A DNA stretch of 64,000 nt from Candidatus Daviesbacteria bacterium (GTDB taxonomy: Bacteria > Patescibacteriota > Microgenomatia > Daviesbacterales > UBA10151). This document shows, piece by piece, positions 5,231-32,363 of this stretch; position 1 is the stretch's first letter, and each line of letters starts with the position of its first letter. Position numbers and translations under genes: made by a program. Below the pieces are notes generated by a model. The model had not been told where the DNA came from and searched no databases. It was given only the letters and a program-made list of their open reading frames with translations. The DNA is taken from the NCBI GenBank assembly GCA_021731695.1, contig JAKFWZ010000078.1, positions 25,073 through 89,072 of the forward strand, read 5' to 3'.

Positions 5231-5581
5231 TTATTTTATGGCGGGCCTCACTTTAACTATATATTCAATAATTTCCGATGGATTAACTTTTTTACCTCTT
5301 CTTATAACAGTCACAACTTTTAAATTTGGTTTTAATGAAGATTCTTCACAATCAACAATTTGAGCTGGCATTTTTTCTCCGTTTTCAAATTCAACAATAC
5401 CAGAAATATACGGAATAAAATCTTCAAAGCCTAAAGGAGGTACTGAAATTTTTGTCCACACCAAAAGTTTACCCGTTCTATTAAGGTACTTATTTAAAGT
5501 TTTATGGTGTCTCCAGACTTGTGATGGGTTAGTCATTTTGTAATATATGTACGGCGACTGTTGCACCTGTTCCTCCGACAT
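5231..5581 (-). CDS. DUF35-type OB-fold protein, partner of the thiolase/HMG-CoA synthase pair
   Basis: 116-aa protein with a C-terminal OB-fold-like region. It lies immediately downstream of the thiolase and HMGCS genes, as in archaeal operons. The true start may be Met16 at about 5536. Confidence 0.5.
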   Translation of the reverse strand: MSEEQVQQSPYIYYKMTNPSQVWRHHKTLNKYLNRTGKLLVWTKISVPPLGFEDFIPYISGIVEFENGEKMPAQIVDCEESSLKPNLKVVTVIRRGKKVNPSEIIEYIVKVRPAIK

Positions 5582-6662
5582 TTTGCGTTAATCCGATTTT
5601 CGGATTCTTAATTTGTCGGTTTACCGCAGTGCCTTTTAATTGTTCATAAACTTCAATAATTTGTTTCACACCAGTTGCACCAACCGGGTGACCGCAGCCC
5701 TTAAGGCCTCCTGAGGTGTTAACTGGCAGATTGCCGCCAAGCTTTGTTATTCCGCTCTCAATAAATTTTCCGCCATCACCTTTTTTGCAAAACCCTAAGT
5801 CTTCCATTGCCAGAATTTCAGCGATTGTAAAACAATCATGCACTTCGAGTAAGTCAACTTCTTTTTGAGTAATGCCTGCTTGTTCGAAGGCTTTTTTAGA
5901 AGCCCTTATTGTTGCTGATATTTCATTCAAGTTTTTTCTTTCTGATAGTCCGACAGAATCACTTGCGACAGCACTGGCACTGATGTAGACATCTGATGGT
6001 TTGGAAGAGCTTAATACAACAGCAGCAGCCCCGTCAGTAATGGGTGATGAATCAAAAAGTGTTAAAGGGTCAGCGATCATTGAAGAATTCAAAACTTTAT
6101 CAACAGAAATTTCAAAAGAGTATTGGGCTTTAGGATTTAAAGAAGCATGATAGTGATTTTTTACTGCAACCGAAGCCAGCTGTTCTCTCGTTGTTCCATA
6201 TTTTTTCATATGAGATTTTGACATCAATGCATAAAGAGCGGGAAAAGTTAGACCGGATTGTCTCTCGGCTTCCGAGGCTGCTCCCATTAGAGCTGTACCG
6301 ATTTCTGAAGTTGATAAATCTGTCATTTTTTCAACACCAATAACTAAAACATTTTCATAAAGTCCGGATAAGACTCCGGTAACTGCCTGATGAACCGCAA
6401 CGCCCCCTGAAGCACAGGCTGCTTCAACATGAGCGCTCGATGTATTAATTCCGAGCTTTTGTGCAACAAGCGCCCCCAGATGATCCTGACCGCTGGCTTT
6501 TCCATATAACATGTTTCCGACAATCACTGCATCAATCTGACCTGCTTTTAATCCAGAATCTTTTAAAGCTTCTGATCCCGCATCATATGCCAGATCCAAA
6601 AGTCCTTTATCCCAAAGTTCGCCAAATTTTGTAATACCGGAACCAAGTATGTTTACTTTCAT
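5529..6662 (-). CDS. Acetyl-CoA C-acetyltransferase (archaeal-type thiolase)
   Basis: N-terminus MKVNILGSGITKFGE. Thiolase Cys motifs (VEAACASGG; CGHPVGATG). Confidence 0.8.
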   Translation of the reverse strand: MKVNILGSGITKFGELWDKGLLDLAYDAGSEALKDSGLKAGQIDAVIVGNMLYGKASGQDHLGALVAQKLGINTSSAHVEAACASGGVAVHQAVTGVLSGLYENVLVIGVEKMTDLSTSEIGTALMGAASEAERQSGLTFPALYALMSKSHMKKYGTTREQLASVAVKNHYHASLNPKAQYSFEISVDKVLNSSMIADPLTLFDSSPITDGAAAVVLSSSKPSDVYISASAVASDSVGLSERKNLNEISATIRASKKAFEQAGITQKEVDLLEVHDCFTIAEILAMEDLGFCKKGDGGKFIESGITKLGGNLPVNTSGGLKGCGHPVGATGVKQIIEVYEQLKGTAVNRQIKNPKIGLTQNVGGTGATVAVHILQND

Positions 6663-6674
6663 AATTTAAAATTT

Positions 6675-7772
6675 TTAAACGTACCCTTTCGACATTAATA
6701 TTTTTAGTAGATAAGAGTAGTTAATATATTCTTTATTTTTGATTTGATCTGCAACCTTTGTTTTTTTCTTCTTTTGATAAGCAGTGATTAGGGGAGTAGC
6801 TTCCAGGATAAAAGCGTCGGATCCGGCTCCTGATCCGTAACTACATAAAAATATTTTTTGGTTTGGTTTAGCGATATCTAAAACTGCAGCTAATCCTAAA
6901 AGAGAAGAGGCAGAGTAGGGGTTGCCGATATCCTCAACTTTAAAACCTGCTTCTAATTGTTCTTTTTTAAAGCCTAATTTTTTTGCCACCTCTTTTGGGA
7001 ACTTACTGTTTGGCATATGAAAAACAACATAATCAAAATCTGAGGGTTTCGTCTTGGTTTTTTCCATCAAATGAGTTGATGCACTCATTACATGAGTGAA
7101 ATACGCCGGATCTCCGGTGAATCTGCCTCCGTGTGAGGGAAATTTTTGTCCGTCGCGTCTCCAAAAATCCGGTGTATCGGATGAATAGGATGTTGATTCG
7201 ATTACATTGGCGATGACTTTCTTGCCGCTTCCTAAAACGGATCCTTCAGCTCCTTTTGGGTTCTTGCTAGTTGAATCGGAACCCAAAATAAAAGCGGCGG
7301 ACGCAGAAGCTGCCGTGTATTCTAAAGCATCCCCGGGTTTTGCTTGTGCAACATCGGACCCAATCACTAAACCGTATTTATTTTTCTTAAGTTCATCCAT
7401 CATGGAGATAAGCCTCATCGCTGCGGTTGCGGCTTTGCAGGCAAATTGAGTGTCGATAGCCAAATAGTTGTGCGGAAGACCCAATATTTCGCCAACGATA
7501 GTAGAAGTAGGTTTTACTGCATATGGGTGAGATTCTGAACCAACCGCTAAAGCTTTAATGTCGGCCAAGGGGATTTGACCAGATTCGATTGCAGCCATAC
7601 CTGCTTCGACAGCAAGTGTCGTGGCGTCCTCGTCCAGTGAAGCTACGGATTTTTCACTGAGCCCTAAACCTCTTTCGATTTCTCCGGCATTCTTATTCCA
7701 GAAATTCGCAATTTCAGAAATCTTAACGCGATATTTAGGAATGTAAGTTCCGTATGAAATTATTCCAATCAT
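6675..7772 (-). CDS. mvaS: Hydroxymethylglutaryl-CoA synthase (archaeal type)
   Basis: N-terminus MIGIISYGTYIPKYRV. Motifs FACKAAT and GSGAGSDAF. Confidence 0.8.
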   Translation of the reverse strand: MIGIISYGTYIPKYRVKISEIANFWNKNAGEIERGLGLSEKSVASLDEDATTLAVEAGMAAIESGQIPLADIKALAVGSESHPYAVKPTSTIVGEILGLPHNYLAIDTQFACKAATAAMRLISMMDELKKNKYGLVIGSDVAQAKPGDALEYTAASASAAFILGSDSTSKNPKGAEGSVLGSGKKVIANVIESTSYSSDTPDFWRRDGQKFPSHGGRFTGDPAYFTHVMSASTHLMEKTKTKPSDFDYVVFHMPNSKFPKEVAKKLGFKKEQLEAGFKVEDIGNPYSASSLLGLAAVLDIAKPNQKIFLCSYGSGAGSDAFILEATPLITAYQKKKKTKVADQIKNKEYINYSYLLKILMSKGYV

Positions 7773-7790
7773 GTTTAATATTTAATAAAC

Positions 7791-7915
7791 CAATAAACCA
7801 ATAAACCAATTTCAAATAAAATTGCCTTGGGACTTCGTCTAAAACCAATTCCCAATGCGCTCCAATCTTATTGAAATTTGTATATTTGACATTGGTTTAT
7901 TTGTATATTCTAGCG
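7791..7915. repeat. Dyad CCAAT/ATTGG intergenic element, copy 2
   Basis: Structure is (aaaccaat)x3, then gacttcgtctaaaaccaattcccaat, then tttgacattggtttatttg. The core is 24/26 identical to 50348-50373. The arms are inverted (aaaccaatgtcaa vs ttgacattggttt). Confidence 0.6.
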
Positions 7916-9055
7916 TCCTTTCCTTCCAAGTTTAACATGCGAACTTGCCAGGGTGCCTTCTGAAAGTGAAGCAAGTAGTGAGAGTTCGCCGGCTAAAACT
8001 GAAGCGGCTATAACTTCAGAAAATTCTAGCACATCTTGAGCACCAATTATATTTAGAGCCTCTTTTTGCGAAGGCAGATTGGTTCCTCCGCCGACGGTCC
8101 CAACCATTAAGGAGGGGAGATAGACAGAGAAATATAAATCACCTTTTTCTGTAACTTCTGCACTGGTTACTCCTAAACTTCCTTCAACAATTTGTCCCAG
8201 GTCCTGTCCCGTTGCAGCAAAAATTGCAGCAATTATATTTGCAAAATGTGCATTAAATCCAATAGATCCGGCCATTGCCGAACCCGTTAGAACTTTTCTA
8301 TAAACTAAGTCAGCTATTTTTTCAGGTGTGGTTTTTAAAATCTCGCGAACGACAGATTTTTTAAGTGTGCAATCTGCCCAAACCATTTTTCCCCGACCTT
8401 CTATAAAATTCAGCCAAGCCGGTTTTTTATCAATATCATAATTTCCTGAAATAGAAATGCAACTTGATCCGGTATTTTTTTCAATAAACGGGATAACATC
8501 AGTAACAGCGATAGTTGCCATATTCATTCCCATTGCGTCTTTTGAATCAAAAGAAAATCTCACAAATAAATTTTTCCCTGCAAGGCTGGAAGTGATTGTA
8601 TTAAGTTTTAAATGAGAAGAGGTGCTTTCGCAAATCTTGGCAATTTTTCCGAAATTTCTCCCCAACCATTTTTTTATTTCAAAAGAGTGAGTGATGCCAC
8701 GGGTTTTAAAAACCGGACTTCTGGTTACACCAACATTTTGGATTTCGACAGAAGCTCCTCCTGAAAGAGCTACGGCTTTGCAGCCTCTTGAAACGGAAGC
8801 AACTAAAGCGCCTTCTGTTGTGGCGAGGGGAATGTAATATTTGCGCGTGGCTTGTGGCGCGTGGCGAATGGAAATTGGACCTGCAATTCCCAGAGGAATC
8901 TGAACAGAACCGATTAAGTTTTCAATATTTTTACCATTTACAGATTCCTCTGAAAAGTTAAAACCGGAAATTGCATTAAGATTTATTTTAAGCTCTGATT
9001 CTAAAAAATCTTTCCTACTCGCAGCTGTTTTAAAATCGCGAAGACTTTTGCTCAT
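7910..9055 (-). CDS. mvaA: HMG-CoA reductase
   Basis: Motifs ENLIGSVQIPLGIAGP, DAMGMNM and GTVGGGT. Confidence 0.85.
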   Translation of the reverse strand: MSKSLRDFKTAASRKDFLESELKINLNAISGFNFSEESVNGKNIENLIGSVQIPLGIAGPISIRHAPQATRKYYIPLATTEGALVASVSRGCKAVALSGGASVEIQNVGVTRSPVFKTRGITHSFEIKKWLGRNFGKIAKICESTSSHLKLNTITSSLAGKNLFVRFSFDSKDAMGMNMATIAVTDVIPFIEKNTGSSCISISGNYDIDKKPAWLNFIEGRGKMVWADCTLKKSVVREILKTTPEKIADLVYRKVLTGSAMAGSIGFNAHFANIIAAIFAATGQDLGQIVEGSLGVTSAEVTEKGDLYFSVYLPSLMVGTVGGGTNLPSQKEALNIIGAQDVLEFSEVIAASVLAGELSLLASLSEGTLASSHVKLGRKGR

Positions 9056-9081: not shown

Positions 9082-10218
9082 GTGCGCAAATGGGAAATTT
9101 GTGTTACAGTATCGGGCATGGATTTTACAGAGTTCTTAAAACTAAATTCAAAAAAAATTGATGAAGAAGTTGCAGAAATATTGCAGAATGAATTGGTATT
9201 CACTAAGAGATTAACCCCTCAGCTTAATGAATTTAAAAAAGCATCAATAGGCGGAAAAAGAGTTAGAGGAGCACTGGTATTGCTGGGGTATAGAATTGCC
9301 GGTGGAAAAAATTCTAAAGAAATTCTAAAAGCCTCAGCAGCTTTTGAAATCTTTCAAACTTCAATTCTTGCACAAGATGATGTAATCGATAAATCTTTAA
9401 CCAGAAGAGGGAAAAAATCCTTAGCAGCTTCTTTGGGAAATGATCATAAAGCTTTAGCTGATACGATTTGTCTAACAGATCTGGGATTTTTTATATCATA
9501 TAAAACTCTGGCTCTGCTTAAAATTGAGGAAAAATATAAGAATCAGGCGATAGTGCACTTTTCTGAAATGTCTGTGAGTACTGGTTTAGGTGAAATGCTT
9601 GATGTGGAGATTTCAATGAATAATGACATTAGTGAAGGCGAAATTTTAGAAGTGGCAAAGCTCAAAACTGCAATTTATACAATTTCCGGCCCCTTAGTGT
9701 TAGGGGCAATTCTTGCCGGAGCTAAAGATAAGCTAATTGAAGAACTTGAAAATTTTGGAGAGAATTTAGGAGTTGCATTTCAAATTCAGGACGACATATT
9801 AGGAGTTTTTGGAACTGAAAAAAAAACAGGAAAATCAGATACCTCAGACATAGAAGAAGGGAAGAAAACACTACTCTTAAGTCATGCGCTAGAGAATGCA
9901 AAAGTTGAGTCTAAGAGGACTCTGGTAAAAATCTACGGCAGTAGTAATATTGATAAGTTGGATTTAGAACAGGTTAAAAAGATTTTTACTGAAACAGGAA
10001 GTCTTGATTACGCAAAAGCCAGAGCTGAGGATTATTTTAGCAAGGCAGAAAGCACATTGAAAAATCCGCAACTTGATGTTTTAAGAGATCTGATTGATTT
10101 TATTGCCAAGCGGGAAAGTAGTGGGCTTCAGCTGGCGAATAAACAGAAATCATCCCGCGCCGCAAGAGGAGCCGCGGACTTAATTCCGCGGAGACTCATT
10201 AAAAAAAGGAAAAAATGA
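9082..10218 (+). CDS. trans-Polyprenyl diphosphate synthase (FPP/GGPP synthase family)
   Basis: Two Asp-rich motifs (LAQDDVIDKS and FQIQDDILG). The real start may be Met13 at 9118. Confidence 0.8.
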   Translation: MRKWEICVTVSGMDFTEFLKLNSKKIDEEVAEILQNELVFTKRLTPQLNEFKKASIGGKRVRGALVLLGYRIAGGKNSKEILKASAAFEIFQTSILAQDDVIDKSLTRRGKKSLAASLGNDHKALADTICLTDLGFFISYKTLALLKIEEKYKNQAIVHFSEMSVSTGLGEMLDVEISMNNDISEGEILEVAKLKTAIYTISGPLVLGAILAGAKDKLIEELENFGENLGVAFQIQDDILGVFGTEKKTGKSDTSDIEEGKKTLLLSHALENAKVESKRTLVKIYGSSNIDKLDLEQVKKIFTETGSLDYAKARAEDYFSKAESTLKNPQLDVLRDLIDFIAKRESSGLQLANKQKSSRAARGAADLIPRRLIKKRKK

Positions 10219-10304
10219 CTGAAAATTATATTCCAAAACACATAGCAATAATTATGGATGGAAATGAGTCTTTTTCGAAGCCTCTTTCCTGGCGAATTCT
10301 ATGA
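10215..10304 (+). CDS. 29-codon upstream ORF mimicking the UppS N-terminus, ATGA-coupled on both sides
   Basis: Encodes MTENYIPKHIAIIMDGNESFSKPLSWRIL. Its ATG overlaps the TGA of the prenyl synthase and its TGA overlaps the uppS ATG. It is a degenerate copy of uppS codons 10-25. Confidence 0.3.
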   Translation: MTENYIPKHIAIIMDGNESFSKPLSWRIL

Positions 10305-11047
10305 GTATTAATAAACAACCAAGCGAAGAATTTGTTCCTAGACATATTGCCATCATAATGGACGGAAATAGGCGCTGGGCGCGGGTTAGGGGACTTGAGG
10401 ATATCGAGGGACACGAGAAAGGTTCAGAAACTTTGGAAAAAATTGTAGAAGCCGCAGCCAAAGCGGGTGTTAAAACACTTACGGTTTATGCACTCTCAAC
10501 AGAAAATATAAAGGAGCGAGCTAAAAGGGAGATGGGGGGATTATTTAATTTAATGAAATCTTCTTACAACAAAAAAATAAAGAAGATGATGAAAAACGGG
10601 GTGCGGGTAGAAATCTTAGGAGAATTAAATGGTTTGCCTTCTATAATAAAAAATGTAATTAATGAAATCAGAAAAACATATATAGATAACGAAGCGATTA
10701 AATTAAACATTGCCCTAAATTATGGAGGCAAGAAAGAGCTAGTTGAGGCAGTTAAGGACTTAATAAAAGAAGGAATTGATTTAAATGAGCAAAGCTCGAA
10801 ACTTAAAGAATATGTTTCTAAATTAAGCGAATCTGATATCAGTAAAAAACTTTATACTAAAGGAGATACTGATCCCGAACTTGTCATCAGAACCGGCGGA
10901 AGGATTAGACTTTCAAATTTCTTACTCTGGCAGACTGCATACTCAGAGCTTTATTTTACAAAAACTCTTTGGCCGGATTTTGATGAAAAAGAATTTAAAA
11001 AAGCACTTAGCTGGTACAAAAGACAAAAAAGAAATTTTGGGAAGTAA
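10301..11047 (+). CDS. uppS: Undecaprenyl-diphosphate synthase (cis-prenyltransferase)
   Basis: Motifs PRHIAIIMDGNRRWA and RTGGRIRLSNFLLWQTAYSELYF. Confidence 0.9.
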   Translation: MSINKQPSEEFVPRHIAIIMDGNRRWARVRGLEDIEGHEKGSETLEKIVEAAAKAGVKTLTVYALSTENIKERAKREMGGLFNLMKSSYNKKIKKMMKNGVRVEILGELNGLPSIIKNVINEIRKTYIDNEAIKLNIALNYGGKKELVEAVKDLIKEGIDLNEQSSKLKEYVSKLSESDISKKLYTKGDTDPELVIRTGGRIRLSNFLLWQTAYSELYFTKTLWPDFDEKEFKKALSWYKRQKRNFGK

Positions 11048-11088
11048 AATCCATTGACATAGTGTACGCTTGTCAATATTATTAACTC

Positions 11089-11373
11089 ATGAACACTGTA
11101 AAAGTATCCGCCACCAAAGCTAGGAATAATTTCTTCGAACTTTTAAATCAGGTCGTACTTGGTGCCCGCATAATCATTGTGAAAGATAGAAAGGAGATTG
11201 CAGTCCTATCTCCTAAAAAAAACAAAACTGACTGGAAAGCGCTTCGCCTGGCGACCAAAAAATCACACGGAGCTTTAAAAGACTACGATCCAGAAGATAA
11301 CCCGCTTAGGAAAACAGGAGCGGCTGACTTCTTGGGTAAATGGGACACCAAAGATTACAAAATAGGAGGTTAG
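11089..11373 (+). CDS. Phd/YefM-family antitoxin
   Basis: N-terminus TKARNNFFELLNQVVLGARIIIV. Overlaps the downstream PIN gene. Confidence 0.6.
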   Translation: MNTVKVSATKARNNFFELLNQVVLGARIIIVKDRKEIAVLSPKKNKTDWKALRLATKKSHGALKDYDPEDNPLRKTGAADFLGKWDTKDYKIGG

Positions 11374-11762
11374 TTTCACTGAAATTAGTACTGGACACTA
11401 GTATATTGATTGACCATCTAAGAGGTGGTGATAAGTGGAAACGCATTCTAAGCGAGCTCGAAGAAGATACCGAAATCTATATATCTTCCATAGTGCTCTT
11501 TGAATTATATTCAGGAAAAAGTAGTCAGAATCCACAAATTTCCAGCAAAATCCAACAACTGGTCAAAAATTTTCAAAAAATAGAAATTGATGCCTATTTG
11601 GCGCAAAAAGCTGGAGAGCTTTATCGGGATATGAAACAGACTATTCAAATCCCAGATTATATAATAGCTGCCAGTGCATTGGAAATTGGTGCTCAAGTTG
11701 CAACTTTAAACAACAAAGACTTTGAACAGATCCCCGGTCTTAAACTATATTCAGTAACATAA
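11340..11762 (+). CDS. vapC: PIN-domain toxin (VapC-like)
   Basis: Motif LVLDTSILIDHLRGGD and later acidic residues. The start is uncertain: the ATG at 11340 overlaps the antitoxin, and the alternative lies near an AGGAGG at 11365. Confidence 0.65.
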   Translation: MGHQRLQNRRLVSLKLVLDTSILIDHLRGGDKWKRILSELEEDTEIYISSIVLFELYSGKSSQNPQISSKIQQLVKNFQKIEIDAYLAQKAGELYRDMKQTIQIPDYIIAASALEIGAQVATLNNKDFEQIPGLKLYSVT

Positions 11763-11767
11763 AATCC

Positions 11768-11822
11768 TCTGGCTGGATTTTGATGAAAAGGAATTCAAAA
11801 AAGCCCTAAGTTGGTATGAGCC
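11768..11822 (+). repeat. Direct repeat of the uppS 3' end (orphan fragment), about 85% identical to 10968-11025
   Basis: ctctggctggattttgatgaaaaggaattcaaaaaagccctaagttggtatgag matches the uppS C-terminal codons LWPDFDEKEFKKALSWY. Confidence 0.75.
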
Positions 11823-11829
11823 TCTGGGG

Positions 11830-11935
11830 ACTCCTCTTCGCTTCGCCCGTAGTTTCTCTTCCTGCCCGCCTTCGGCGGGATTCGCCTACCGGCGAAGCAA
11901 ACTTCATCCAGGACGCACATCCGTGGTTTTCGTTT
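11830..11935 (+). ncRNA. GC-rich structured element B, a candidate sRNA or terminator homologous to element A
   Basis: Outer stem gcttcgcc/ggcgaagc encloses a cccgcc-TTCG-ggcggg tetraloop hairpin. Then comes CTTCATCC and a weak hairpin plus CGTGGTTTT. Confidence 0.3.
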
Positions 11936-11995
11936 GAAGGAATAAAAAACAAAAAAGATGGAAATGAGGAACTATAAAAAGAGGTAAAGTTAGGT

Positions 11996-12535
11996 CTAAG
12001 GCTGCTTTGCTGATTTTGAGGATTCGCTTGCTCCCATTTCAGCGGGTCTGAACAAAGCTGCTGACCCGGAGGCGGTTGGGATAGGAGGCGGGGCCTTGTA
12101 TGGGACATTGTATATAATTGAAGATATCGTAAACTTATCCTCAACCATATCTAGGTTTACTGTAAGTTGTGTATTTAAATCAATTGACTCTGGGTCAACG
12201 TCTGGGATTTGTTGGTTATCTGAAGTAGTTTTATTTATATAAAATGTTTTGCCTGTTTCAAATGCTCCTTCAGTGCCGTTTTGGTTTTTGACAGTAATCC
12301 ATTTTCCGTCAACTTTTACAACTTTTCCTTCAATCGCGGCCGATTGTCTGGAAAAAACAGGTTTAGCTTTTAGGTTTTCCGGAGTCAATTTATTAGAACC
12401 TAAATTCATCCCCAAAATAAGACCAAAAATAATTCCTACAATTAACCCAAGTAAAATTTTCGCAATTTGAAAGCTTTTGCTCGATGGAATTTTTTGATTT
12501 ATATTAGGTTGGACATAAGGGCTTTCCGAATTCAT
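11996..12535 (-). CDS. Hypothetical N-terminally anchored protein
   Basis: One TM helix (ILLGLIVGIIFGLILG) followed by a soluble domain. Confidence 0.4.
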   Translation of the reverse strand: MNSESPYVQPNINQKIPSSKSFQIAKILLGLIVGIIFGLILGMNLGSNKLTPENLKAKPVFSRQSAAIEGKVVKVDGKWITVKNQNGTEGAFETGKTFYINKTTSDNQQIPDVDPESIDLNTQLTVNLDMVEDKFTISSIIYNVPYKAPPPIPTASGSAALFRPAEMGASESSKSAKQP

Positions 12536-14019
12536 ATTTTTTTCTCAAGCGCCTCGATCCGAGCTTTTAGCCTGTCGTTTTCAAGTTTAAGCTCTTGGAT
12601 TGCCTTTGTCGTGTATGGAATTACATCTCTATAATCCATAGAATAATATCCGCTGCCCTCCATATGTACACTTCCTGGCAGGATTGGCAAAGCATCCTGG
12701 GCAATAAATCCGCTGGCATTCTTTCTGCCGTCCAGATAATCAAATGTAGCGGGTTTTAGTTGGGCAACTATTTCAAGGCCGCTATTGTCACCTTCCAGAT
12801 AGCGGATATTTTCTTTTAACCTTTTGTCTGAGCCGCAATTCCCCATACTGCCTGAATTTGTGAAACATTGAGGATTGGAACCTGGTGCGTTCATAGCCGG
12901 ATCTTTGAAATCTCCAGTACCTCCAGCTAATATAATACTTCCGACTACAGAGAGTTTTTCAGAGGGATTTGTATCTCCAATCCCTACATTACCCAGTACA
13001 TCATTTAATACAATATTCCTCCAGGCAACACCAGGTTCGTGGTATCTAATGGCAAAATAGGGGGGCACAGGCGACGACGGGGTCACTGCAAACATCTCCA
13101 GCCCTTTTGTATTATTAATAGCAGGGGTTCCTAAAAAGATATTCCCTATTCCGGCACCCGGGTTGATCCTGGCGCTGCCGCAGACCATAAACGTAGCCCC
13201 GCCTCCCAGAGCTCCTCCACACCCCGCTCCTGATGGAGATCCGGAGTCGAATCCGTGCTGCATATACACAGGTTTATTGAATGCACGTACCCAACTAGAA
13301 TCCGTCATCCACCAGCCACCTGCATAAGTTTCGTTATACCAGCCAGCAGCCCCATAACTTCTATGCCAGCCTCCTCCCTGATCGATCACAGTTCCCGCAC
13401 TCATTGTTAAAGCTCCCTGAATAAGTGCATTTCCATTTACATCCAATGGCTGACTGGGGTTTATAGTTCCTATACCGACCCTTTTAGTAGTTGGATCAAC
13501 ATATAAAGTTTCTCCGGCCCTGATTTTTCCGATATTCGTACCCGGATCACCAGGAAAGTTTAAGTAGAGTTCTCCTTGGGCATTAATTACAAGATGAGTA
13601 TTCGTTCCTCTAATATAGTTAGTAGTAGTTGAAAATCCGTTATCAGTGCGTATTTGTAAGAGATTTTGGAGACCAGTCAAGTTAAGTTGTTCAACTGATA
13701 GGGTTTTGAGGACTGAGTTGGCACTGGGATCAAGATTATATGCAGCATTATTTAAATCTATCAGACTGCGGATTCCGGCTGCTCCGCCTGGGGTCAGTTG
13801 AAGGCTCTGCCCACTGGTTGCACCATTCCCCTGAAGGTAAAAATTTAAATTGGGAGGACTCGCAGTATCTCTGCTGGTTACCCAGTCTTGATTGTTGGTC
13901 TGAGCGAAACTCACGCTGCTTAAGCTCAAGACCGCTGCAAATCCCAGAAACAAAATTGAAAAAAAAGCATACATGATTTTAAATGGAAATTTTATATCTA
14001 TAGTTTCGAATTTATACAT
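12532..14019 (-). CDS. Tailspike/fibre-like surface protein with C-terminal S74 intramolecular-chaperone (auto-cleaving) domain
   Basis: Signal/anchor at the N-terminus and a Gly/Asn-rich beta-rich body. The C-terminus reads GSDKRLKENIRYLE...GFIAQDALPILP...AIQELKLENDRLKARIEALEKKI. Confidence 0.6.
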   Translation of the reverse strand: MYKFETIDIKFPFKIMYAFFSILFLGFAAVLSLSSVSFAQTNNQDWVTSRDTASPPNLNFYLQGNGATSGQSLQLTPGGAAGIRSLIDLNNAAYNLDPSANSVLKTLSVEQLNLTGLQNLLQIRTDNGFSTTTNYIRGTNTHLVINAQGELYLNFPGDPGTNIGKIRAGETLYVDPTTKRVGIGTINPSQPLDVNGNALIQGALTMSAGTVIDQGGGWHRSYGAAGWYNETYAGGWWMTDSSWVRAFNKPVYMQHGFDSGSPSGAGCGGALGGGATFMVCGSARINPGAGIGNIFLGTPAINNTKGLEMFAVTPSSPVPPYFAIRYHEPGVAWRNIVLNDVLGNVGIGDTNPSEKLSVVGSIILAGGTGDFKDPAMNAPGSNPQCFTNSGSMGNCGSDKRLKENIRYLEGDNSGLEIVAQLKPATFDYLDGRKNASGFIAQDALPILPGSVHMEGSGYYSMDYRDVIPYTTKAIQELKLENDRLKARIEALEKKI

Positions 14020-14120
14020 GTCTTAATCAAAACAGAAAATTAATACTTATGTCAACTAATCTGTTTTTTGGTCGGTTTCATCTGAATATTCCAGAACTCG
14101 ATTTACCCGGTTAAATAACT

Positions 14121-15122
14121 TCAGGTCCTTTGCCATAGGCAACCTGAGATTATTAAATTGCTTATAGTCCAAGATCTGTCAGGAGGAGGATTTAATAGTA
14201 CTTCCGTACAAATAGGAGGGGGGAGAGGTGTGGCTGAAGGATAGGGGGTGCTGGTAACGCCGGGGATAGTATAATGCTGGTCTTCGGTTGTAATAATCAA
14301 ATCCTTTGTAAATATCCCGCCTCTTAAAAGATATAAATACTTGGCCTGTTTATTTACTACTTCGGCAGGCTGGACATTTACCGCAAGGCTTCTAATGAAC
14401 TGGATTGCACTCGCAGAGCCCAGATCGGTTTTGTTTAGGGAAATTAAGCTGCCGTTGATTACGAGTTGCTGGGTTGAAGGAGTATTTACACAGCCTGGGC
14501 CGGTTACATACGAGGAGCAAATATATCCCGTAGTACTAGGCAGAGGTAGTCCATTCCCGGTTGAAATTAATACAGCATTAACCTGAGTAACGTTTGAATA
14601 AATATTTATATTGTCCCGGACTATAAAGACTAAGCCCGAATTCATATCGGCATTGGCATAGGTGATATTCCCTGTGATGTTTAAATCTCCCTGGACAAAA
14701 ATAACCTGAACTCCTGTTCCCGTACCTGTTACATTATTGATAGTTAGGGTGTTGGGTTGTAAATAAACTCCACTTCCTGCAGGAAAGTTTAAGGTTTGTA
14801 CCGGACTTTGGGGAGGCGCTGTAGTTTTTTTCGCCGCCGATCTGTTTAGAGCATAGAACTGGTCTTCAAGATCCTGATAGGTTGGAACTTTGAAATCCCG
14901 GTATTGAGCATTGTTTCCGGTAACGCAGATCTGCCCTGGATTCCCGGTGTTCCCGGTTGAGCCGCCGACTGCTGAAATTAACCCTTCATTTAAATCACTT
15001 AGGAGGCATTGAGCAAAAACCTTGGAATCAGTTTTTGATAACAGATAAACATTATAAAAAGTGGTCACAGCAAGTACAAAAAGCAGGAAAAATTTTAAAA
15101 TATCAAGCCATTGCCGGTTCAT
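14121..15122 (-). CDS. Secreted/anchored Thr/Gly/Asn-rich beta-helix-like protein
   Basis: N-terminal TM helix. Body rich in NITGNITYANADMNSGLVFIV-type repeats. Confidence 0.4.
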   Translation of the reverse strand: MNRQWLDILKFFLLFVLAVTTFYNVYLLSKTDSKVFAQCLLSDLNEGLISAVGGSTGNTGNPGQICVTGNNAQYRDFKVPTYQDLEDQFYALNRSAAKKTTAPPQSPVQTLNFPAGSGVYLQPNTLTINNVTGTGTGVQVIFVQGDLNITGNITYANADMNSGLVFIVRDNINIYSNVTQVNAVLISTGNGLPLPSTTGYICSSYVTGPGCVNTPSTQQLVINGSLISLNKTDLGSASAIQFIRSLAVNVQPAEVVNKQAKYLYLLRGGIFTKDLIITTEDQHYTIPGVTSTPYPSATPLPPPICTEVLLNPPPDRSWTISNLIISGCLWQRT

Positions 15123-15149
15123 TTTTCAGGAAGTATGAGTCGGTACATT

Positions 15150-18100
15150 TTAAGGTATATTAATAAATTCATTGGTGTGGACATCGCCTCCGGTTGTTTT
15201 AAGGAAAGGCTTCTTAAGCTTAATAAAAAAGTTTCTGGTTGTAAATTGAGTCTTTAAAGGGTGTACTGAGGTCAGATTTGTAAGAAGTTGATTAACTTCA
15301 GCGCCGGATAGTGCTTTGTTATACAATCTAAATTCATCAATTCTTCCGTTAAAGTAACCATTAAAACCATTTCCCAAGTAAACCGTTGCTGCATTAGCCT
15401 GAACCGCAACGCCGCCAGTATAAGTACCTACTAAAGCTCCATTAAGATAAAACGACCAGGTGCTTGAATTTGATAAGGTGACTGCTACATGATTCCATGT
15501 ATTCAGGGGAAAGGCAGTGGTTGCCCTGTAATTACCATCAACATAAAACCTCAAGCTATTATTTGCATTTTGCACCAGTATAAATGGACCGCCCGAAGTT
15601 AGAGAATTAGCCCACTGGAAAATCCCCTTCGTGCCTGATTCTGAAGGTGCATTAAACCAGAAAGATACAGTTGTATTGCTCAGTGAAGTCCCGGAAATAT
15701 TAGCAGAAACATAATCATTCGCTCCATCAAAATTCCCGGCATTGGCAAACCTACCTGTTGTGACAGTATTAGCTCCATTAGCAGCAGTGCCATGATTAGC
15801 ATTAGGTCCCGAATCCTTAACCTCACCAGCAGTTCCGTTCCAGCTGCCCTCATTCATACTCCAGTGAACCATCAGGGGATCAGGAGTGGTATTAATTGTA
15901 GAAGTTTTAAGTACATTAATCTCTGATCCCGTAAGTAATTTGTTATATATTCTGACATCATCAAGTCTTCCCCTGAAAAAGCCGTTGTTAAATTGTTTAC
16001 CAATCTGGGCTGTATCCCCGGGAATGTGAGTAATATTTGCAGTTCCGGTATTCTGGACGCTGCTCAAATTCCCGTCAACGTAAAATGACACTGTTCCTGC
16101 GGCTCTATTCCAAACACCGGCCAGGTGGTACCACTGGTTTAAGTTTAAGGAAGTGGTATCCGTATACCATCCCCTTACGCCGCCGTCGTTATAGGCATAG
16201 GCCAATTTTTGGTCTGAGCTTCCGGTGCCTGAACTTAAAATACCCCATTCATAACCGGCATTGCTTATATTGCTGGATCTGGCAAATATTATTCTGACAC
16301 CGGTGTTATAGTGAGCCGTTAAATAAACCCAGGTTGATAAGGTATGATTCTGAACTTGAAGCGAAGGGCCAGTTCCAAGAGAGATAATATCATTGCTCCC
16401 GTCAAAACTGCCCGCCCGGCCAAATTTACCTGCAGATATGGTTGTAACCCCTCCCTGAGCTGTTCCGTGATTATTATTTGCAGTTGAATCGGGAACTTGT
16501 GGAGCGGTTCCAGTCCAATTAGCTTCATCAAGCGCCCAATAACCTGCGAGTCCGGTAGTTATATCAACGGGTGTGCCTGGAATTGTTGAAATAACATCTC
16601 CGATATTATTATTTGTGCATGTTAGTGTGTATAAAGCACTGTTAGCCGGGGGGTTAACGAATTGCTGGGACAGTATTGAACCAGTCAAGGATGGATTTAC
16701 GCTTAGGTTATTCCAGTTGGGGTCTGGACCGGGAGCAGTAGGATTATTTGTAATAGCAGATGTCCCGGTGCAAACATCAGCATGAGATACGTTCCAGGTG
16801 AGATTAACTTTATTACCGGAATCTACATCGGGAAGAAATGAAAGTTCATCCCTGCCATCAACCAAAAGAGAGACGTTGGGTTTATTGCAGTCTTTTATTA
16901 AGGTAGGGGTGGCGGTATTAGACATCCTGGATGCGCCGCTGAAATCGTTGATTGCTTCAACAGAGTATTCAATATTGTGAGTTAAGTCTAAAGGGTCAAG
17001 AGGGAAGGATGGATTGTAAGTATCATCAAAATAATCATAAGTTCCGCCTGCGAACGGGAGAATATTTGAATTTATATCTACGGGGGCAGAGTCCAATCCT
17101 ATTCTCTTTCTGCTGATAACATATCGGGTTGCGTTAGCGGAATTAGAAAGAGTTGTTTTCATTAAAGGCGAAGTTCCTGAGCATGAACCGACAGGGCCCG
17201 AGAGAGTAAAAGGACTTGGAGCCGCGCATTCAATGGTTAGAACGGTTCTAGTTATGGGAGCTGACCAAACGCCACTTACCCGACGCCTTAGGCTATAGGT
17301 GTAGGATTGTCCGCCTGTATTTACGACACTTGGAGTTGTTTGAGTCATGGACAAGTTAGGTCCTGTATAGATTGGACTGGCAATATCACTTCTTGATAAT
17401 TCATATTCTGTAGCTCCCGTTACCGGATCCCATGCCAGTGTAATTTGGCCATTTTCAGTATTGGGTTGGCATCCAGGCGCTGCCACGAAAGCAGTTGAGG
17501 AACTATTGGGGTTAAGTCCAAATCTGACTCTGGTATCTATGTCTAAAGCAAAATATACTCCTTGAGGCGTGGTTCTGTGAAACCCCGTCGCTGCATCGTC
17601 GTGGACCACCAAATAATATCCCCCGGGTACATTGCTGAACCTATATGTTGGCGGTTCACCCGGATTTTGTGGAACTGTTGTTTGCTGTGCGTAAAAAGTA
17701 TATCCGCCGCTAGCTTGTCTCGCCCAAAGGCTTATGCTCTGATTATCTAAAGATACCTCAGTATCCTGATAAAAAGCATCCCCGTTAGGAGGGGGGATAT
17801 CATCTATATAGACCCTGCCGAATACTTCATAGGTAGAGGTTGGATTTGTCGGGGTTATAACCGGATCGTCGACGTATACATATATAGTGTCATTACTTGG
17901 GTCATCATCACTATTTGCAGACCCTCCGGTACCCGACGTTCGTCCATCCTTGTCTCCATTCCCTCCGTAACTATTATCAGCTTCATTAATATCCCCCCCA
18001 TCACCAACATCCTCTTGTACGCCCGAAGGAGAGTCATCTCCTCCATATTGAGCATAAACTTCTTGTACAACGCGTAAATAATCAAATATGGGTATATGAT

Positions 18101-18176
18101 TAAATATAAAAAAACCAACAAAAACTAATGAAGTTGTGATGAAAAATGTGTTGAACAAATGACTTATTTTTTGCAT
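15150..18176 (-). CDS. Giant surface protein with three LamG/concanavalin-like domains
   Basis: N-terminal TM helix. A LamG-like unit (NNHGTA..G...F.G..D....SL..WV......W.HLA.V.....G...FYVDG) recurs three times. Confidence 0.6.
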   Translation of the reverse strand: MQKISHLFNTFFITTSLVFVGFFIFNHIPIFDYLRVVQEVYAQYGGDDSPSGVQEDVGDGGDINEADNSYGGNGDKDGRTSGTGGSANSDDDPSNDTIYVYVDDPVITPTNPTSTYEVFGRVYIDDIPPPNGDAFYQDTEVSLDNQSISLWARQASGGYTFYAQQTTVPQNPGEPPTYRFSNVPGGYYLVVHDDAATGFHRTTPQGVYFALDIDTRVRFGLNPNSSSTAFVAAPGCQPNTENGQITLAWDPVTGATEYELSRSDIASPIYTGPNLSMTQTTPSVVNTGGQSYTYSLRRRVSGVWSAPITRTVLTIECAAPSPFTLSGPVGSCSGTSPLMKTTLSNSANATRYVISRKRIGLDSAPVDINSNILPFAGGTYDYFDDTYNPSFPLDPLDLTHNIEYSVEAINDFSGASRMSNTATPTLIKDCNKPNVSLLVDGRDELSFLPDVDSGNKVNLTWNVSHADVCTGTSAITNNPTAPGPDPNWNNLSVNPSLTGSILSQQFVNPPANSALYTLTCTNNNIGDVISTIPGTPVDITTGLAGYWALDEANWTGTAPQVPDSTANNNHGTAQGGVTTISAGKFGRAGSFDGSNDIISLGTGPSLQVQNHTLSTWVYLTAHYNTGVRIIFARSSNISNAGYEWGILSSGTGSSDQKLAYAYNDGGVRGWYTDTTSLNLNQWYHLAGVWNRAAGTVSFYVDGNLSSVQNTGTANITHIPGDTAQIGKQFNNGFFRGRLDDVRIYNKLLTGSEINVLKTSTINTTPDPLMVHWSMNEGSWNGTAGEVKDSGPNANHGTAANGANTVTTGRFANAGNFDGANDYVSANISGTSLSNTTVSFWFNAPSESGTKGIFQWANSLTSGGPFILVQNANNSLRFYVDGNYRATTAFPLNTWNHVAVTLSNSSTWSFYLNGALVGTYTGGVAVQANAATVYLGNGFNGYFNGRIDEFRLYNKALSGAEVNQLLTNLTSVHPLKTQFTTRNFFIKLKKPFLKTTGGDVHTNEFINIP

Positions 18177-18238
18177 CGGTAGTGAATATAAAGAATACCT
18201 GCAAAAATAGGTTTTATCAACTAAGGATTATGGGGATA

Positions 18239-19423
18239 TTAAAGTATTGAACTTATTTGTTCTGCAGAAATTCTACCTCTATGAACGAAATCGTTTACTA
18301 TTTCAAGCTCTCGACGCCTCTTCTCTTTAGGGTCTTTTAGTACAGCAGCATTGATCCAATCTTGGTAAATCGCTGCTATTCTTCCAGACTCTCCAACCTC
18401 TCCAACCCCAAGTCGAAGTTTTACACTACTGTAAATTCTCATCATGTCTCCTAGCACAAGATGAGAAAATGGGATTTCACCAAGAGGATTATCAATAGAA
18501 AAATAGCCCTGAACGTATTTTGGATTTTTGCCTTCGTTAAGTATTAATTGATCTCCTTTTTTTGAGAAAGCTCGAAGCAATTCAGTATGTAAATACAAAT
18601 TAAATACATCCTCTATTGTTCGACCCGAAGAACTGTCCTCTAGAAGCGCTCCTATTCCATTTAATGCGTAAACCACTTTTGGAAAATTATCAGATGTACC
18701 AATATGAGAGGCTAGCGGTCTACCAGAACTTGGTTGAGATGGATTTTTAGATTCCATTTCAGTCACAAAAACTCCTGTTTTATTAAGTGCTCGATTATTA
18801 TTATCGATTATGAAGTTTATAGTTGCTATTAAATGGGGATCGTTTAAGAAATAAATAGAATCAGATACCCTCTTGAGATGATCTCGCATTCTAAAGCTAT
18901 CCGCAGGCTGAGATTCTAATCTTCTGCCATTTGAAAGCTCGTAAATTTTAATTTTATCTATTCCCTGATGAACGGTATTAACCTCAGAAGGAGCTGTTTT
19001 ACTTAGCTCTGGGCGTGGTGCCGAAAGAATACTTGCGCTTAAATTAGGATCTGTTAAGGGTTTTTCTTCTATAACTTCAGTTGGCGGGATAGTTGGTTCA
19101 ATAATATCGGCAATGCCTGGTGCAGCACCCAATTCGTCAGAGAAGTCATGCTGCCTATCTGGTGCAGCGGCGATGTCGGCGTAAGTGCCTTTTAAATTTA
19201 ATTTTGAAGGATCTCTAAGGGAAATTCTGGCAATCTCAACTGCGCCTTCCGGGATCACAAAATCAACAGCAGGTTTAATAGAACTTGCAGCTCTTATGGT
19301 ATCTGTTGTCGCCTGAGCATTAACATCTCTGCTGTCCAAAAGCATGGCTGCCATGCCCAAACTACCAGCTAGTGGAGCTAATTTTCTAGTTACCCTTGTA
19401 AGAAAATCTCTTTCAGTTAACAT
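18239..19423 (-). CDS. Hypothetical protein
   Basis: 394-aa ORF with no recognised motifs. Confidence 0.4.
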   Translation of the reverse strand: MLTERDFLTRVTRKLAPLAGSLGMAAMLLDSRDVNAQATTDTIRAASSIKPAVDFVIPEGAVEIARISLRDPSKLNLKGTYADIAAAPDRQHDFSDELGAAPGIADIIEPTIPPTEVIEEKPLTDPNLSASILSAPRPELSKTAPSEVNTVHQGIDKIKIYELSNGRRLESQPADSFRMRDHLKRVSDSIYFLNDPHLIATINFIIDNNNRALNKTGVFVTEMESKNPSQPSSGRPLASHIGTSDNFPKVVYALNGIGALLEDSSSGRTIEDVFNLYLHTELLRAFSKKGDQLILNEGKNPKYVQGYFSIDNPLGEIPFSHLVLGDMMRIYSSVKLRLGVGEVGESGRIAAIYQDWINAAVLKDPKEKRRRELEIVNDFVHRGRISAEQISSIL

Positions 19424-19645
19424 TATTGTGTATTATCGCACACTATAAGTCCAAAATCAAATCTTTCGGGCTGAAATCGGCGTATTATTGAGAAAATTGG
19501 ACACAGAAAAGAAGTTGGAGCCTGAGAGTAATCTAATAAATAAGTCTTACTTAGTCTCATTTAGTGATTTATATCTAATGGCATTATACCACCGGCGTCA
19601 ATACTAAAAAAGCCTTAGTTATAAGATATTGCGCTTGGTACTGTT

Positions 19646-20158
19646 TTAAGGGGCTGTTGCTGAGGCGGATGCAGATTTAGGCGGCTGGTTTTTTAGGATT
19701 ACAACTGCGGTAGTCTGATATGTTTTTTGTTTTAACCCTTTTCGTGTAGTTAACTCTATTGTTTGTCCCTTTTGCAAATCTGAGGATGAAGCTGCAATGG
19801 TTTTATCCGCCTCTTTTATGCTAATTTTTGTCTTTGAATCTAGATAAAAAACTGATGGTATCCGTTTTCCCTTCAAATCTGTTGATAGCTGAATCATGTT
19901 TTGTTTATCAACTACTACATTTTCCAAATCCGTTACTTTTGCTTTAAGCGTGTAAACGAACCCGGCGCTTATTACAGCCGGATGATCCGGATCAATTGGC
20001 ACCAAATCATTTAAATTAGCAGATTTATCCGGGTTATTGGATTTTACCTGAGGGGAGGCTGTTTTTGGGGGATTACTGCCGTAAAAAAAGTAAATTCCGG
20101 CAAGAAAAGCAATAATAAGAACAACTAAAACCGCAAAAAAAAGCTTATTTCGGCTCAT
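19646..20158 (-). CDS. Small N-terminally anchored protein (family shared with 28868-30629)
   Basis: Signal-anchor MSRNKLFFAVLVVLIIAFLAGIYFF. Confidence 0.4.
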   Translation of the reverse strand: MSRNKLFFAVLVVLIIAFLAGIYFFYGSNPPKTASPQVKSNNPDKSANLNDLVPIDPDHPAVISAGFVYTLKAKVTDLENVVVDKQNMIQLSTDLKGKRIPSVFYLDSKTKISIKEADKTIAASSSDLQKGQTIELTTRKGLKQKTYQTTAVVILKNQPPKSASASATAP

Positions 20159-30807: not shown

Positions 30808-31020
30808 ATGCAGATGAAATTAAATGCAAAACAACTTCGTAATTCGTTATTAGTTAAGTCGTTAAAAAACAAAACGAAAAACGAAACAACGAAAAACGAG
30901 ATCTATATAATCTTAGACAATATTGTAGACACTTATAATATTGGTGCGATTTTCAGGCTGGCTGATGCAGTTGCAACTAAAAAAGCTTACCCTTGGGGAA
31001 AAATGGATTATTCTTCCTAG
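30808..31020 (+). pseudogene. Orphan 5' fragment of a SpoU/TrmH methyltransferase gene, about 88% identical to 31792-31965
   Basis: Encodes MKLNAKQLRNSLLVKSLKNKTKNETTKNEIYIILDNIVDTYNIGAIFRLADA, then diverges and stops. It is interrupted by the TA module. Confidence 0.65.
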
Positions 31021-31433
31021 GGTTCTTTGCGGATTATGTTAGTAATTTTATCAAAATCCTCATCGTAAGAGTAAATTGTCTTGGCTGTTGATTGTTGGGT
31101 AAGCACAGCGAGTATTGCATCTGTGAAGTCGATATTTTTATCAACATAATAATCCAATGCTTGAATGATGACTTGTTTATTCTCAACTTTAAAGTTTGGA
31201 TATCGCAACAGAGGAACTAATAAATCCCTTATCTTGTGTTTGGGCAAATTGTAGAGATTGGGGGATGAAAGTACAAAAACTGCATCAGCAATGACAGTTT
31301 CAGGCGCAGATAAAATTAATTCACCTCCTGAGGCCTTTTCAAAAAGAACTGTCGAATCTTTACGTCTACGCTCATCATCACCGGTTAGAAGTCTAATAAT
31401 TACATTTGTATCAACATATGAATCATTTGCCAT
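31017..31433 (-). CDS. vapC: PIN-domain toxin (VapC-like)
   Basis: Motifs YVDTNVIIRLL...TDAILA...YDEDFD. Confidence 0.7.
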   Translation of the reverse strand: MANDSYVDTNVIIRLLTGDDERRRKDSTVLFEKASGGELILSAPETVIADAVFVLSSPNLYNLPKHKIRDLLVPLLRYPNFKVENKQVIIQALDYYVDKNIDFTDAILAVLTQQSTAKTIYSYDEDFDKITNIIRKEP

Positions 31434-31740
31434 ATTTCTCTTTTAAATAATCCTCACGGGCTATATTTCGCACTTGCTTCCAAGGAAGGGGTTTTTTGAG
31501 TTTTCCTGCACCACCACTTAAGGATTTAATGTCAGGATATTTGGCAGGTGTCACCTGGACTAAGCCGCCTGGGCTGATAACAAAAGCCACTTTATCATTA
31601 GTATCTACTCCTAAATGTTTACGTACCTCAATAGGAATAGTTATTTGTCCTTTACTGCTTAATGTAGTGACTAATTGTTTAGAATGGGTATTTTGTAGCA
31701 TGAGTAAGAATATATTATCATTGTCCTTACTTACCGTCAA
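31423..31740 (-). CDS. AbrB/MazE/SpoVT-fold antitoxin
   Basis: Motif SSKGQITIPIEVRKHLGV. The likely start is Met14. Confidence 0.6.
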   Translation of the reverse strand: MTVSKDNDNIFLLMLQNTHSKQLVTTLSSKGQITIPIEVRKHLGVDTNDKVAFVISPGGLVQVTPAKYPDIKSLSGGAGKLKKPLPWKQVRNIAREDYLKEKYGK

Positions 31741-31789
31741 TAGGTAAAGAATTTGATAAAATTATGCTATTATACAATTTACAATATTT

Positions 31790-32332: not shown

Positions 32333-32363
32333 ATCTGGATTAGTACTATGGTACAATCCCGTT

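Follow-up and report, generated by a model that had tools for sequence, protein, structure and literature searches.

The question raised by this locus is how a toxin-antitoxin (TA) operon of the Phd/VapC kind came to lie between two copies of a 3' segment of uppS, the gene for undecaprenyl diphosphate synthase. The window, meaning the whole stretch of DNA that was analysed, comprises 64,000 nt (positions 25,073 to 89,072 of contig JAKFWZ010000078.1, assembly GCA_021731695.1). It is low-GC DNA of a Daviesbacteria-like bacterium of the candidate phyla radiation (CPR), taken from a metagenome-assembled genome with a GC content of ~35%, and the nearest homologs of its uppS are annotated as Candidatus Daviesbacteria. 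The movement of chromosomal TA pairs is unclear because most of them carry no mobility genes. A sequence-only reading of this DNA had described the TA operon as bracketed by the last ~55 bp of uppS, had likened it to a case at spoU in the same window, and had argued for a common mechanism of TA mobilisation. Our analysis leans towards a recombination scar, in which a TA-linked foreign uppS block would have been imported and the resident uppS displaced.

A repeat search at the site returned one pair, 10961-11016 against 11761-11816 (56 nt, 84% identity, offset of exactly 800 nt). Read as uppS codons, the similarity extends over 19 of them (57 nt, 10961-11017 and 11761-11817), and 17/19 amino acids are the same. 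The repeat of the sequence-only reading is therefore real, with other limits: it begins ~7 nt earlier than the positions first given (10968-11025 and 11768-11822), and it is not the final ~55 bp of uppS, since the intact gene runs 10 codons past it (KRQKRNFGK*), codons that copy 2 does not have at that position. Self-tblastn gave E = 7e-6 for the two copies. When uppS was scored without gaps against the 300 nt that follow vapC, the result was 32.5; the 300 dinucleotide-type shuffles averaged 10.1 with a standard deviation (sd) of 1.1 and peaked at 15.5. The similarity thus stands ~20 sd over the shuffles and does not fall to chance level. A terminator or structured RNA was considered as the identity of the repeat and rejected, as no terminator-like hairpin is present in either copy and Rfam was empty at gathering and permissive thresholds; the repeat is coding sequence. 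The vapC stop codon already contains the first bases of copy 2, which has no start codon and is read in another frame than vapC. The longest exact run common to both copies is ~15 nt. A tRNA or tmRNA was also considered as the insertion target, and none is nearby.

A remnant missed in the sequence-only reading lies on the other side of the intact gene, where the upstream ispA-type gene is followed by a 5' stub of uppS (Table 1). This stub was matched by tblastn with uppS residues 8-28 (E = 1.6e-4), and its nucleotide score of 15.0 exceeds that of the shuffles (mean 10.0, sd 1.1, maximum 13.5). Its ATG overlaps the TGA stop of ispA (ATGA), the same overlap being present between ispA and uppS in the related locus L086; ispA and uppS are adjacent also in L081 and L084, and the 5' stub occupies the position of the resident uppS in relatives. 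The open reading frame (ORF) of the stub has 29 codons (10215-10304), continues through a 35-nt spacer, and is closed by a TGA overlapping the intact gene's ATG, forming a second ATGA. The spacer may hold the final codons of a donor ispA. The order of the locus is ispA, 5' stub, 35 nt, complete uppS, promoter-phd-vapC, 3' stub, a GC-rich segment of 121 nt, and convergent genes. A block of ~1.5 kb (10266-11760) thus sits between the 17 first codons and codons ~221-239 of another uppS allele, and ~200 internal codons of this stub-bearing uppS are missing. Given the 5' stub, the intact uppS and the TA pair together lie inside the remains of another uppS. Of the bracketing first described, the two copies of the 3' segment on either side of the operon stand; the enclosure takes in the whole intact uppS as well. 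The idea of a cassette that simply duplicated the end of its neighbour had overlooked the 5' stub and does not agree with copies that read as diverged alleles. One block insertion-deletion accounts for both stubs together. The intact gene scores 238 bits against TIGR00055 (cutoff 110), and its protein is 79-81% identical to that of the nearest Daviesbacteria.

Table 1 Features of the uppS and spoU loci, with positions in the window
Feature	Position	Strand	Evidence or content
ispA-type polyprenyl diphosphate synthase	9082-10218	+	Pfam PF00348, 1.1e-53
5' stub, putatively of a second uppS allele	10215-10265	+	17 codons, MTENYIPKHIAIIMDGN, conserved UppS N-terminus
Spacer, 35 nt, stub frame stays open	10266-10300	+	Read from sequence; no homolog found
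Intact uppS, undecaprenyl diphosphate synthase, 248 aa	10301-11047	+	Pfam PF01255, 1-219 of 219, 2.2e-75
Repeat copy 1	10961-11017	+	Codons 221-239 of intact uppS, KTLWPDFDEKEFKKALSWY
Left end of the cassette	11048-11088	+	Promoter TTGACA-17-TATTAT (11054-11082), palindromic predicted operator TTGACAtagtgtacgcTTGTCAA
phd-family antitoxin, 94 aa	11089-11373	+	TIGR01552, 28.1 bits, cutoff 20.8
VapC PIN-domain toxin	11340-11762	+	Pfam PIN PF01850, 1.9e-17, above cutoff
Repeat copy 2, putatively the 3' stub of a second uppS allele	11761-11817	+	KILWLDFDEKEFKKALSWY
GC-rich unique segment, interrupts or ends the stub	11818-11938	.	Up to 60% GC, hairpin (composition)
Possible decayed continuation of the stub	11939-11977	+	GGAATAAAAAACAAAAAAGA, 17/20 against uppS tail 11013-11032; A-rich, weak
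spoU 5' stub, 62 codons	30814-30999	+	E = 1.8e-28
MazE/PIN cassette of the spoU case	~31015-31763	-	Limits from the L086 alignment: toxin stop to ~23 nt past the -35 box
Intact spoU	31790-32332	+	After the MazE/PIN cassette

The differences between the stubs and the intact uppS are concentrated at third codon positions, with 8/10 in the 3' pair and 7/9 in the 5' pair (12 aligned codons), or 15/19 for the window. When the two window pairs were pooled with two independent cases from other genomes, 25/34 differences in the four independent stub/gene pairs were at third positions, and the changed codons comprised 23 with synonymous and 8 with conservative changes (against a uniform distribution P = 2e-6, and against a model with only one copy constrained and the other free to drift P = 1e-3). 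The 3' stub differs from the intact uppS at 10/57 positions, from L086 at 9/57, from L081 at 13/57, and from L084 at 14/57, and the 5' stub differs from the intact uppS at 9/36 and from L081, L084, and L086 at 7/36 each. The identity of these three loci to the window is ~75-80% for UppS and ~70% for HMG-CoA reductase (HMGR). In the comparison proposed with the sequence-only reading, the repeat copies proved no nearer to each other (10/57) than copy 2 is to the uppS of L086 (9/57), another lineage. Because the divergence is of between-species level and 17/19 residues are kept, more than a pseudogene of such age would retain, most of it probably arose while both were working genes in different lineages. 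On this pattern, the stub and the intact uppS appear to be alleles that diverged as working genes and not the products of a fresh duplication. Assignment of the stubs to a lineage at the protein level was tried and given up, the stubs being too conserved to discriminate.

Relatives of the locus show the site in its empty form. L081-L083 and L084-L085 carry mevalonate genes, HMGR on the minus strand, ispA and uppS on the plus strand, and convergent genes, with no TA pair and no stubs; in L081-L085, which are the nearest relatives available and are distant (79% UppS protein identity), the uppS 3' end is single. A homolog of the window ORF 14121-15122 adjoins uppS in L081, L082, L083, L017, and L038, and in L086 uppS is followed by a minus-strand MazE/PIN TA pair that no repeat brackets. 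Since different genes abut uppS across relatives, the position after uppS is a variable spot. The MazE/PIN cassettes of L086 and of the window's spoU case are closely homologous, including their promoters. The HMG-CoA synthase (window 5529-7772 against L086 3-713) is 81% identical to L086 and ~61% to L081, L082, and L001; ispA, uppS, and the adjacent HMGR have no special closeness to L086. The history of the mevalonate-uppS locus is mosaic between lineages, which counts in favour of an import. A scan of GTDB with ispA gave no match above 43% identity, exact look-ups with uppS and ispA returned no record, and the look-up with HMGR returned a single 1.5-kb contig.

A VapC-alignment scan of metagenomes gave 80 loci, with the same phd-vapC family in L087-L121, and 3 Logan loci were added. 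phd and vapC are paired in all related loci L087-L121 except L113, which has a vapC match only. Over ~35 loci, the conserved part of the cassette reaches from 5-8 nt upstream of the -35 box (tCCTATTGACAaGaTGTACA) to the vapC stop, and the neighbours of the cassette differ across ~29 distinct loci; because the limits are sharp and the neighbours vary, the cassette is a discrete unit. In the promoter scan, 11/12 positions matched, with the -35 box lying within an inverted repeat (TTGACA...TGTCAA), and the promoter/operator motif is kept across cassette loci. The possession of its own promoter and a predicted palindromic operator agrees with autoregulation of the Phd/YefM-VapC type. The antitoxin matches the Pfam family PhdYeFM (PF02604) at 3.7e-5 and 23.8 bits, under the cutoff of 29.8, and only the N-terminal DNA-binding part matches. 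For the toxin, identity to homologs is 50-65%, the acidic residues D6, E42, and D93 are invariant (alignment A1, 30 homologs), and matches to the NCBIfam VapC equivalog models are below cutoffs only. By domain content and gene order, antitoxin first and toxin second, the cassette is a predicted type II TA system of the Phd/YefM-VapC (PIN) type.

The vapC core starts at 11379, 5 nt after phd, with CTG where the homologs have ATG. It opens with CTG-AAA-TTA-GTA, and nearly all homologs open with ATG-AAA-CTN-GTN. The sole in-frame vapC ATG is at 11340, 13 codons upstream of the core and 34 nt inside phd; VapC may be poorly translated or may carry an N-terminal extension. The 8 nt TAAAATCC (stop codon plus AATCC) are present at 11045-11052 and 11760-11767, after both the uppS and the vapC coding sequences, and the AATCC that follows both stops matches the left-end consensus of this cassette family. 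The shared 8 nt could be joint microhomology, a trace of a tandem or circular form of the cassette, or chance. In L110-L112 (3696-5559), which belong to another lineage, the same phd-vapC cassette lies ~50 nt upstream of HMGR, again among the mevalonate genes but at another boundary.

Bracketing of TA cassettes by gene ends was found at further loci. At spoU, the repeat 30814-30985 against 31790-31961 (172 nt, 88% identity) lies around the MazE/PIN pair. A DUF433/DUF5615 (Mut7-C/PIN-like) pair on the plus strand (32298-32910) begins at, or inside, the final 35 nt of spoU. spoU thus has a TA cassette on either side, and the DUF433/DUF5615 type is also that of the second cassette in L105/L108. 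In L090, the repeat consists of the last 11 codons plus stop of an upstream 130-aa gene (36 nt, 86% identity), and copy 2 starts in the vapC stop. In L105/L108, the 3' end of a pilin-like gene (58 nt, 93% and 86% identity) is present in three copies around two different TA cassettes, in the order gene-H1, phd-vapC, H2, DUF5615/DUF433 TA pair on the minus strand, H3 (L105 3088-4707, L108 3558-5177). The versions of this gene end read ...PITVTR*, ...PITITRWF*, and ...PITISR*, and their CGC/AGA arginine codon pair is a typical old synonymous difference. L105 and L108 are 98% identical overall, with 4 differing sites in the working copy H1 and with H2 and H3 identical, which indicates that recombination or gene conversion acts on these segments. 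L093/L095 are bracketed by a 71-nt intergenic non-coding hairpin at 94% identity. In the tblastx flank screen, 0/105 mismatched flank pairs had E < 1e-3. L092 was rejected as a further case, its flanks being tandem pilin-like paralogs (58% identity over 205 aa). No member of the phd-vapC family lies beside uppS in L087-L121. As bracketing recurs for the same phd-vapC family, a shared way of arrival is plausible. The likeness between the uppS and spoU cases drawn in the sequence-only reading holds in geometry and extends to other genomes; for the common mobilisation that it proposed, no dedicated machinery was found.

The anatomy and the allelic copies are direct observations, as are the empty sites, the recurrence of the pattern, and the lack of mobility genes, and we consider it somewhat probable that they record the import of a TA-linked uppS block. 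The donor would be a related Daviesbacteria-like organism with the cassette already at the 3' boundary of its uppS. Donor DNA would have been taken up and joined into the resident uppS by illegitimate or microhomology joining, possibly anchored by uppS homology, and ~200 codons from the interior of the resident gene would have been lost in the joining. The essential function would come from the incoming uppS, the TA pair would make loss of the block costly via post-segregational killing, and the stubs would be inert remains whose decay is incomplete. The same process may have acted at spoU and in the other genomes, the cassette travelling with the end of a conserved gene and displacing the resident end. 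We infer the direction of the replacement (which allele was the resident one), the type of joint, and the part played by addiction. At the right joint, AAAATCC is a possible microhomology, and the presence of the 5' stub argues that the left joint was also illegitimate. A hybrid is possible by analogy, namely the homology-facilitated illegitimate recombination proposed for type VI secretion system (T6SS) arrays, in which homology within a shared gene would resolve one junction and the other would be an illegitimate joint with 3-10 nt of microhomology.

Several observations weigh against import of a block. Both junctions would need to be illegitimate, which is rarer than homology-anchored events, and the donor order of uppS followed by this phd-vapC is present at none of the 80 metagenome and 3 Logan loci. 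The intact uppS is phylogenetically unremarkable, with no relative near enough to tell the resident allele. The last 10 uppS codons are absent from copy 2 unless the weak match at 11939-11977 is real, and the 5' stub is without confirmation in any second assembly. Distance estimates are noisy because the stubs are only 36-57 nt long. The rare motif KKALSWY, which 3/120 homologs have, is present in both copies, so the two alleles would be fairly close relatives. The stub begins 0-5 nt from the vapC stop in the window, L090, and L105, which random breakpoints do not predict and which is a hint that the cassette has a defined end or that the junction was inherited.

Several of these points are accommodated if the cassette alone was inserted after the uppS stop with a long target duplication (~29 last codons), if later divergence came partly from allelic replacement of the working copy, and if the 5' stub is a separate event, such as a lost 5' cassette as in the spoU case. 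The gene-H-cassette-H geometry equals that of L090 and L105/L108, where the cassette follows the stop directly and no 5' stub occurs; the onset of the stub at the vapC stop is explained, the KKALSWY shared by both copies fits, and the weak collinear match at 11939-11977 would carry the duplicated target to the stop codon. L093/L095 are likewise bracketed, by a non-coding hairpin, and the differences confined to the working copy in L105/L108 show that recombination or conversion occurs on that copy. Long target duplication is documented (Furuta et al. 2010, PMC2853133), for the most part in species with natural competence, and its definition (insert <20 kb, no mobility gene, repeats >30 bp) covers the 57-nt repeats and the insert of ~0.74 kb found here. 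Where recipient-derived, near-identical repeats are expected of it, however, the copies are 84% identical, synonymous-biased, and equidistant from other lineages, with no close empty-site genome, a pattern that favours two alleles. Copies made in place begin identical, and a 16% divergence that is synonymous-biased and between-species-sized is hard to obtain if one copy has been a pseudogene since the event. The 5' stub requires a second, unrelated event, and the repeat ends before the uppS stop codon, unless the stub is taken to have received an insertion of 121 nt. We hold this account to be doubtful, though a serious candidate.

Movement by a dedicated enzyme in trans, whether an integron integrase at attC-like sites, a tyrosine integrase at a gene-end attB, or a transposase, with the repeats as attL/attR or target-site duplications, would suit the tight and reproducible limits of the cassette and the 5-nt AATCC after both the uppS and the vapC stops, and the repeat after each cassette in L105/L108 resembles an integron array or serial att-site integration. 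No integrase or transposase domains were found, however, in the scanned neighbours (5529-9055, 12532-20158, and the genes around spoU), relatives of the cassette were not found on viral contigs (IMG/VR), and the ~35 cassette loci have no common motif after the vapC stop and no terminal inverted repeats. The bracketing repeats are pieces of whichever gene adjoins, 36-172 nt long, with nothing common between loci, and they are diverged, not identical cores. Gene-piece repeats of varying length that share nothing, with no integrase or transposase and no viral relatives, argue against an integron, transposon, or integrase mechanism. In particular, no attC-like palindrome follows vapC (~35 loci) and no integrase is nearby, as would mark an integron gene cassette; there are no inverted repeats at 11048/11762 and the repeat length varies by locus, unlike in a transposon, insertion sequence, or miniature inverted-repeat element; and the insert consists of uppS, phd, and vapC only, with an identical run of ~15 nt, unlike in an integrase-mediated island. 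An enzyme in trans is thus improbable and already weakly refuted. Least probable of all is an artefact, either chimeric assembly of the uppS alleles of co-occurring strains or chance similarity. The window does come from a metagenome-assembled genome, and the two other assemblies that cover the site, L167 (GCA_021733385.1) and L168 (Logan SRR10388080), are short contigs with breaks close to the repeat boundaries (L167 begins at 10942 and L168 stops at 11831). Both are nevertheless 100% identical to the window across both repeat copies and both TA junctions, an exact run of ~15 nt is too short to mislead an assembler, the architecture occurs also in unrelated assemblies, and the similarity is far above the shuffles.

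GC-rich unique segments (54-60% GC against ~35% for the genome) lie directly outside both uppS stubs, at 10119-10214 and 11818-11938. The upstream segment forms the final ~32 codons of ispA, an extension not present in relatives, whose ORF ends ...DFLKKRDF* (~10118); GC is 0.54 at 10100-10199, and no second copy of the segment was found. The two flanks were considered as a repeated element or as inverted ends and rejected, as they have no other copies and are not mutually complementary. Folding of 11818-11938 was not significant against shuffles (z = -1.7 and -2.3), and the segment has no Rfam match and no other copy. The match at 11939-11977 scores within the shuffle range and is collinear with the uppS tail, so that a decayed continuation of the 3' stub is a weak possibility. 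A 12-nt exact repeat GATGGAAATGAG (10257, 11957) was rejected as the target-site duplication of a 1.7-kb unit, being at chance level among many equal 12-mers.

Other repeats were noted elsewhere in the window. A 40-nt direct repeat with 80% identity (35182-35221 and 35753-35792), each copy ending in GGGGTTGACA, lies around a 135-aa ORF (35252-35659) that has no Pfam match. The ORF and its repeats sit just upstream of the 16S rRNA gene, and the repeat could represent duplicated rRNA promoters or another bracketed insertion. The 16S (36336-37743) and 23S (62260-64000) rRNA genes are separated by ~24.5 kb that hold many protein genes, so the rRNA operon is unlinked; tRNA-Ile is at 43435 and tRNA-Ala at 61791. 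Runs of 7-nt tandem repeats with related sequences (TCGTTAA, TAGTGAT, TCGTTAT/G) occur at several gene boundaries, at 2044-2138, 53869-53953, 58695-58761, 61433-61471, and 61900-61938. An intergenic repeat of ~120 nt (54419-54541 and 56045-56195, 71-76% identity, 1.63-1.65 kb apart) lies upstream of paralogous minus-strand genes, and its copies are tandem paralog units rather than TA cassettes.

At uppS, at spoU, and at at least two unrelated metagenomic loci, the footprint is repeatable, a cassette bracketed by allelic copies of its neighbour's end, and it points to uptake and recombination, not to a dedicated enzyme. If import of the block is true, the uppS locus would be a rare physical snapshot of an essential gene replaced in place by a foreign ortholog, the displaced gene still recognisable by its remains and the successful one tied to an addiction module. 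More tentatively, the compact TA operons of CPR bacteria may be enzyme-free minimal selfish elements that spread while joined to the final (or initial) codons of a conserved gene, using this gene end as a portable homology arm, each arrival displacing the resident end and leaving arrays of allelic stubs (L105/L108), sometimes dragging in a whole foreign essential gene that replaces the resident one (uppS); TA addiction would then drive in situ xenologous displacement. The footprint is easily searched and could be used to measure its frequency in small-genome, DNA-scavenging bacteria.

Insertion of gene complexes for restriction-modification (RM) with long target duplication was reportedly described by Nobusato and colleagues in 2000. 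The repeats of such RM gene insertions are 46-420 bp long and mostly 93-100% identical (Furuta, Abe and Kobayashi 2010, PMC2853133). The uppS locus is alike in having an addiction-type pair without a mobility gene, direct repeats of >30 bp that may overlap the 3' end of the neighbour, and empty sites in relatives; the RM case has been proposed for naturally transformable bacteria. The uppS and related loci differ in carrying a type II TA pair, here in a CPR bacterium, and in having repeats that are 84-94% identical, synonymous-biased, and allele-like, and at uppS a whole essential gene lies inside the block and a 5' stub is left. In the T6SS effector-immunity arrays of Vibrio cholerae, displacement is proposed to occur by homology-facilitated illegitimate recombination (Kirchberger et al. 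2017, PMC5361080). In these arrays and in orphan Rhs and contact-dependent inhibition (CDI) toxin-immunity modules, a conserved upstream gene likewise anchors the incoming DNA, the resident 3' part is shifted downstream as a remnant, and repeated events build arrays, comparable to the three gene-end copies of L105/L108. Those systems exchange the conserved gene's own C-terminal toxin domain together with the immunity gene, whereas uppS, the pilin-like gene, and spoU are unrelated to the TA cargo and lend only their end.

Genomic islands in the 3' ends of tRNA or protein genes (attL/attR) are similar in that the incoming DNA supplies the working end and the displaced end persists as a diverged direct repeat on the far side; unlike them, the loci described here have no integrase, inserts of ~0.7-1.5 kb, no identical core, and varied target genes for one cassette family. 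Within operons, in situ xenologous gene displacement was reportedly inferred from phylogenies by Omelchenko and colleagues in 2003. There too, a foreign ortholog replaces the resident gene at the same operon position; in the uppS locus, by contrast, physical remains of the displaced gene would persist on both sides, together with a linked TA pair. The TA cassettes of chromosomal integrons (the Vibrio superintegron) are likewise compact, self-promoted, discrete pairs that stabilise their surroundings, but here there is no attC, no integron integrase, and no cassette array context. In a limited literature search, no precedent was found for type II TA cassettes bracketed by gene ends, or for such an arrangement in CPR bacteria. 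The parts themselves, uppS and Phd-VapC, are ordinary, and RM addiction modules in long direct repeats and displaced ends in polymorphic toxin arrays are already known. What differs from the known cases is that the repeats are allelic and probably imported, that the TA cassettes of an array are separated by gene-end copies, and that a whole essential gene is flanked by what would be the remains of a displaced one.

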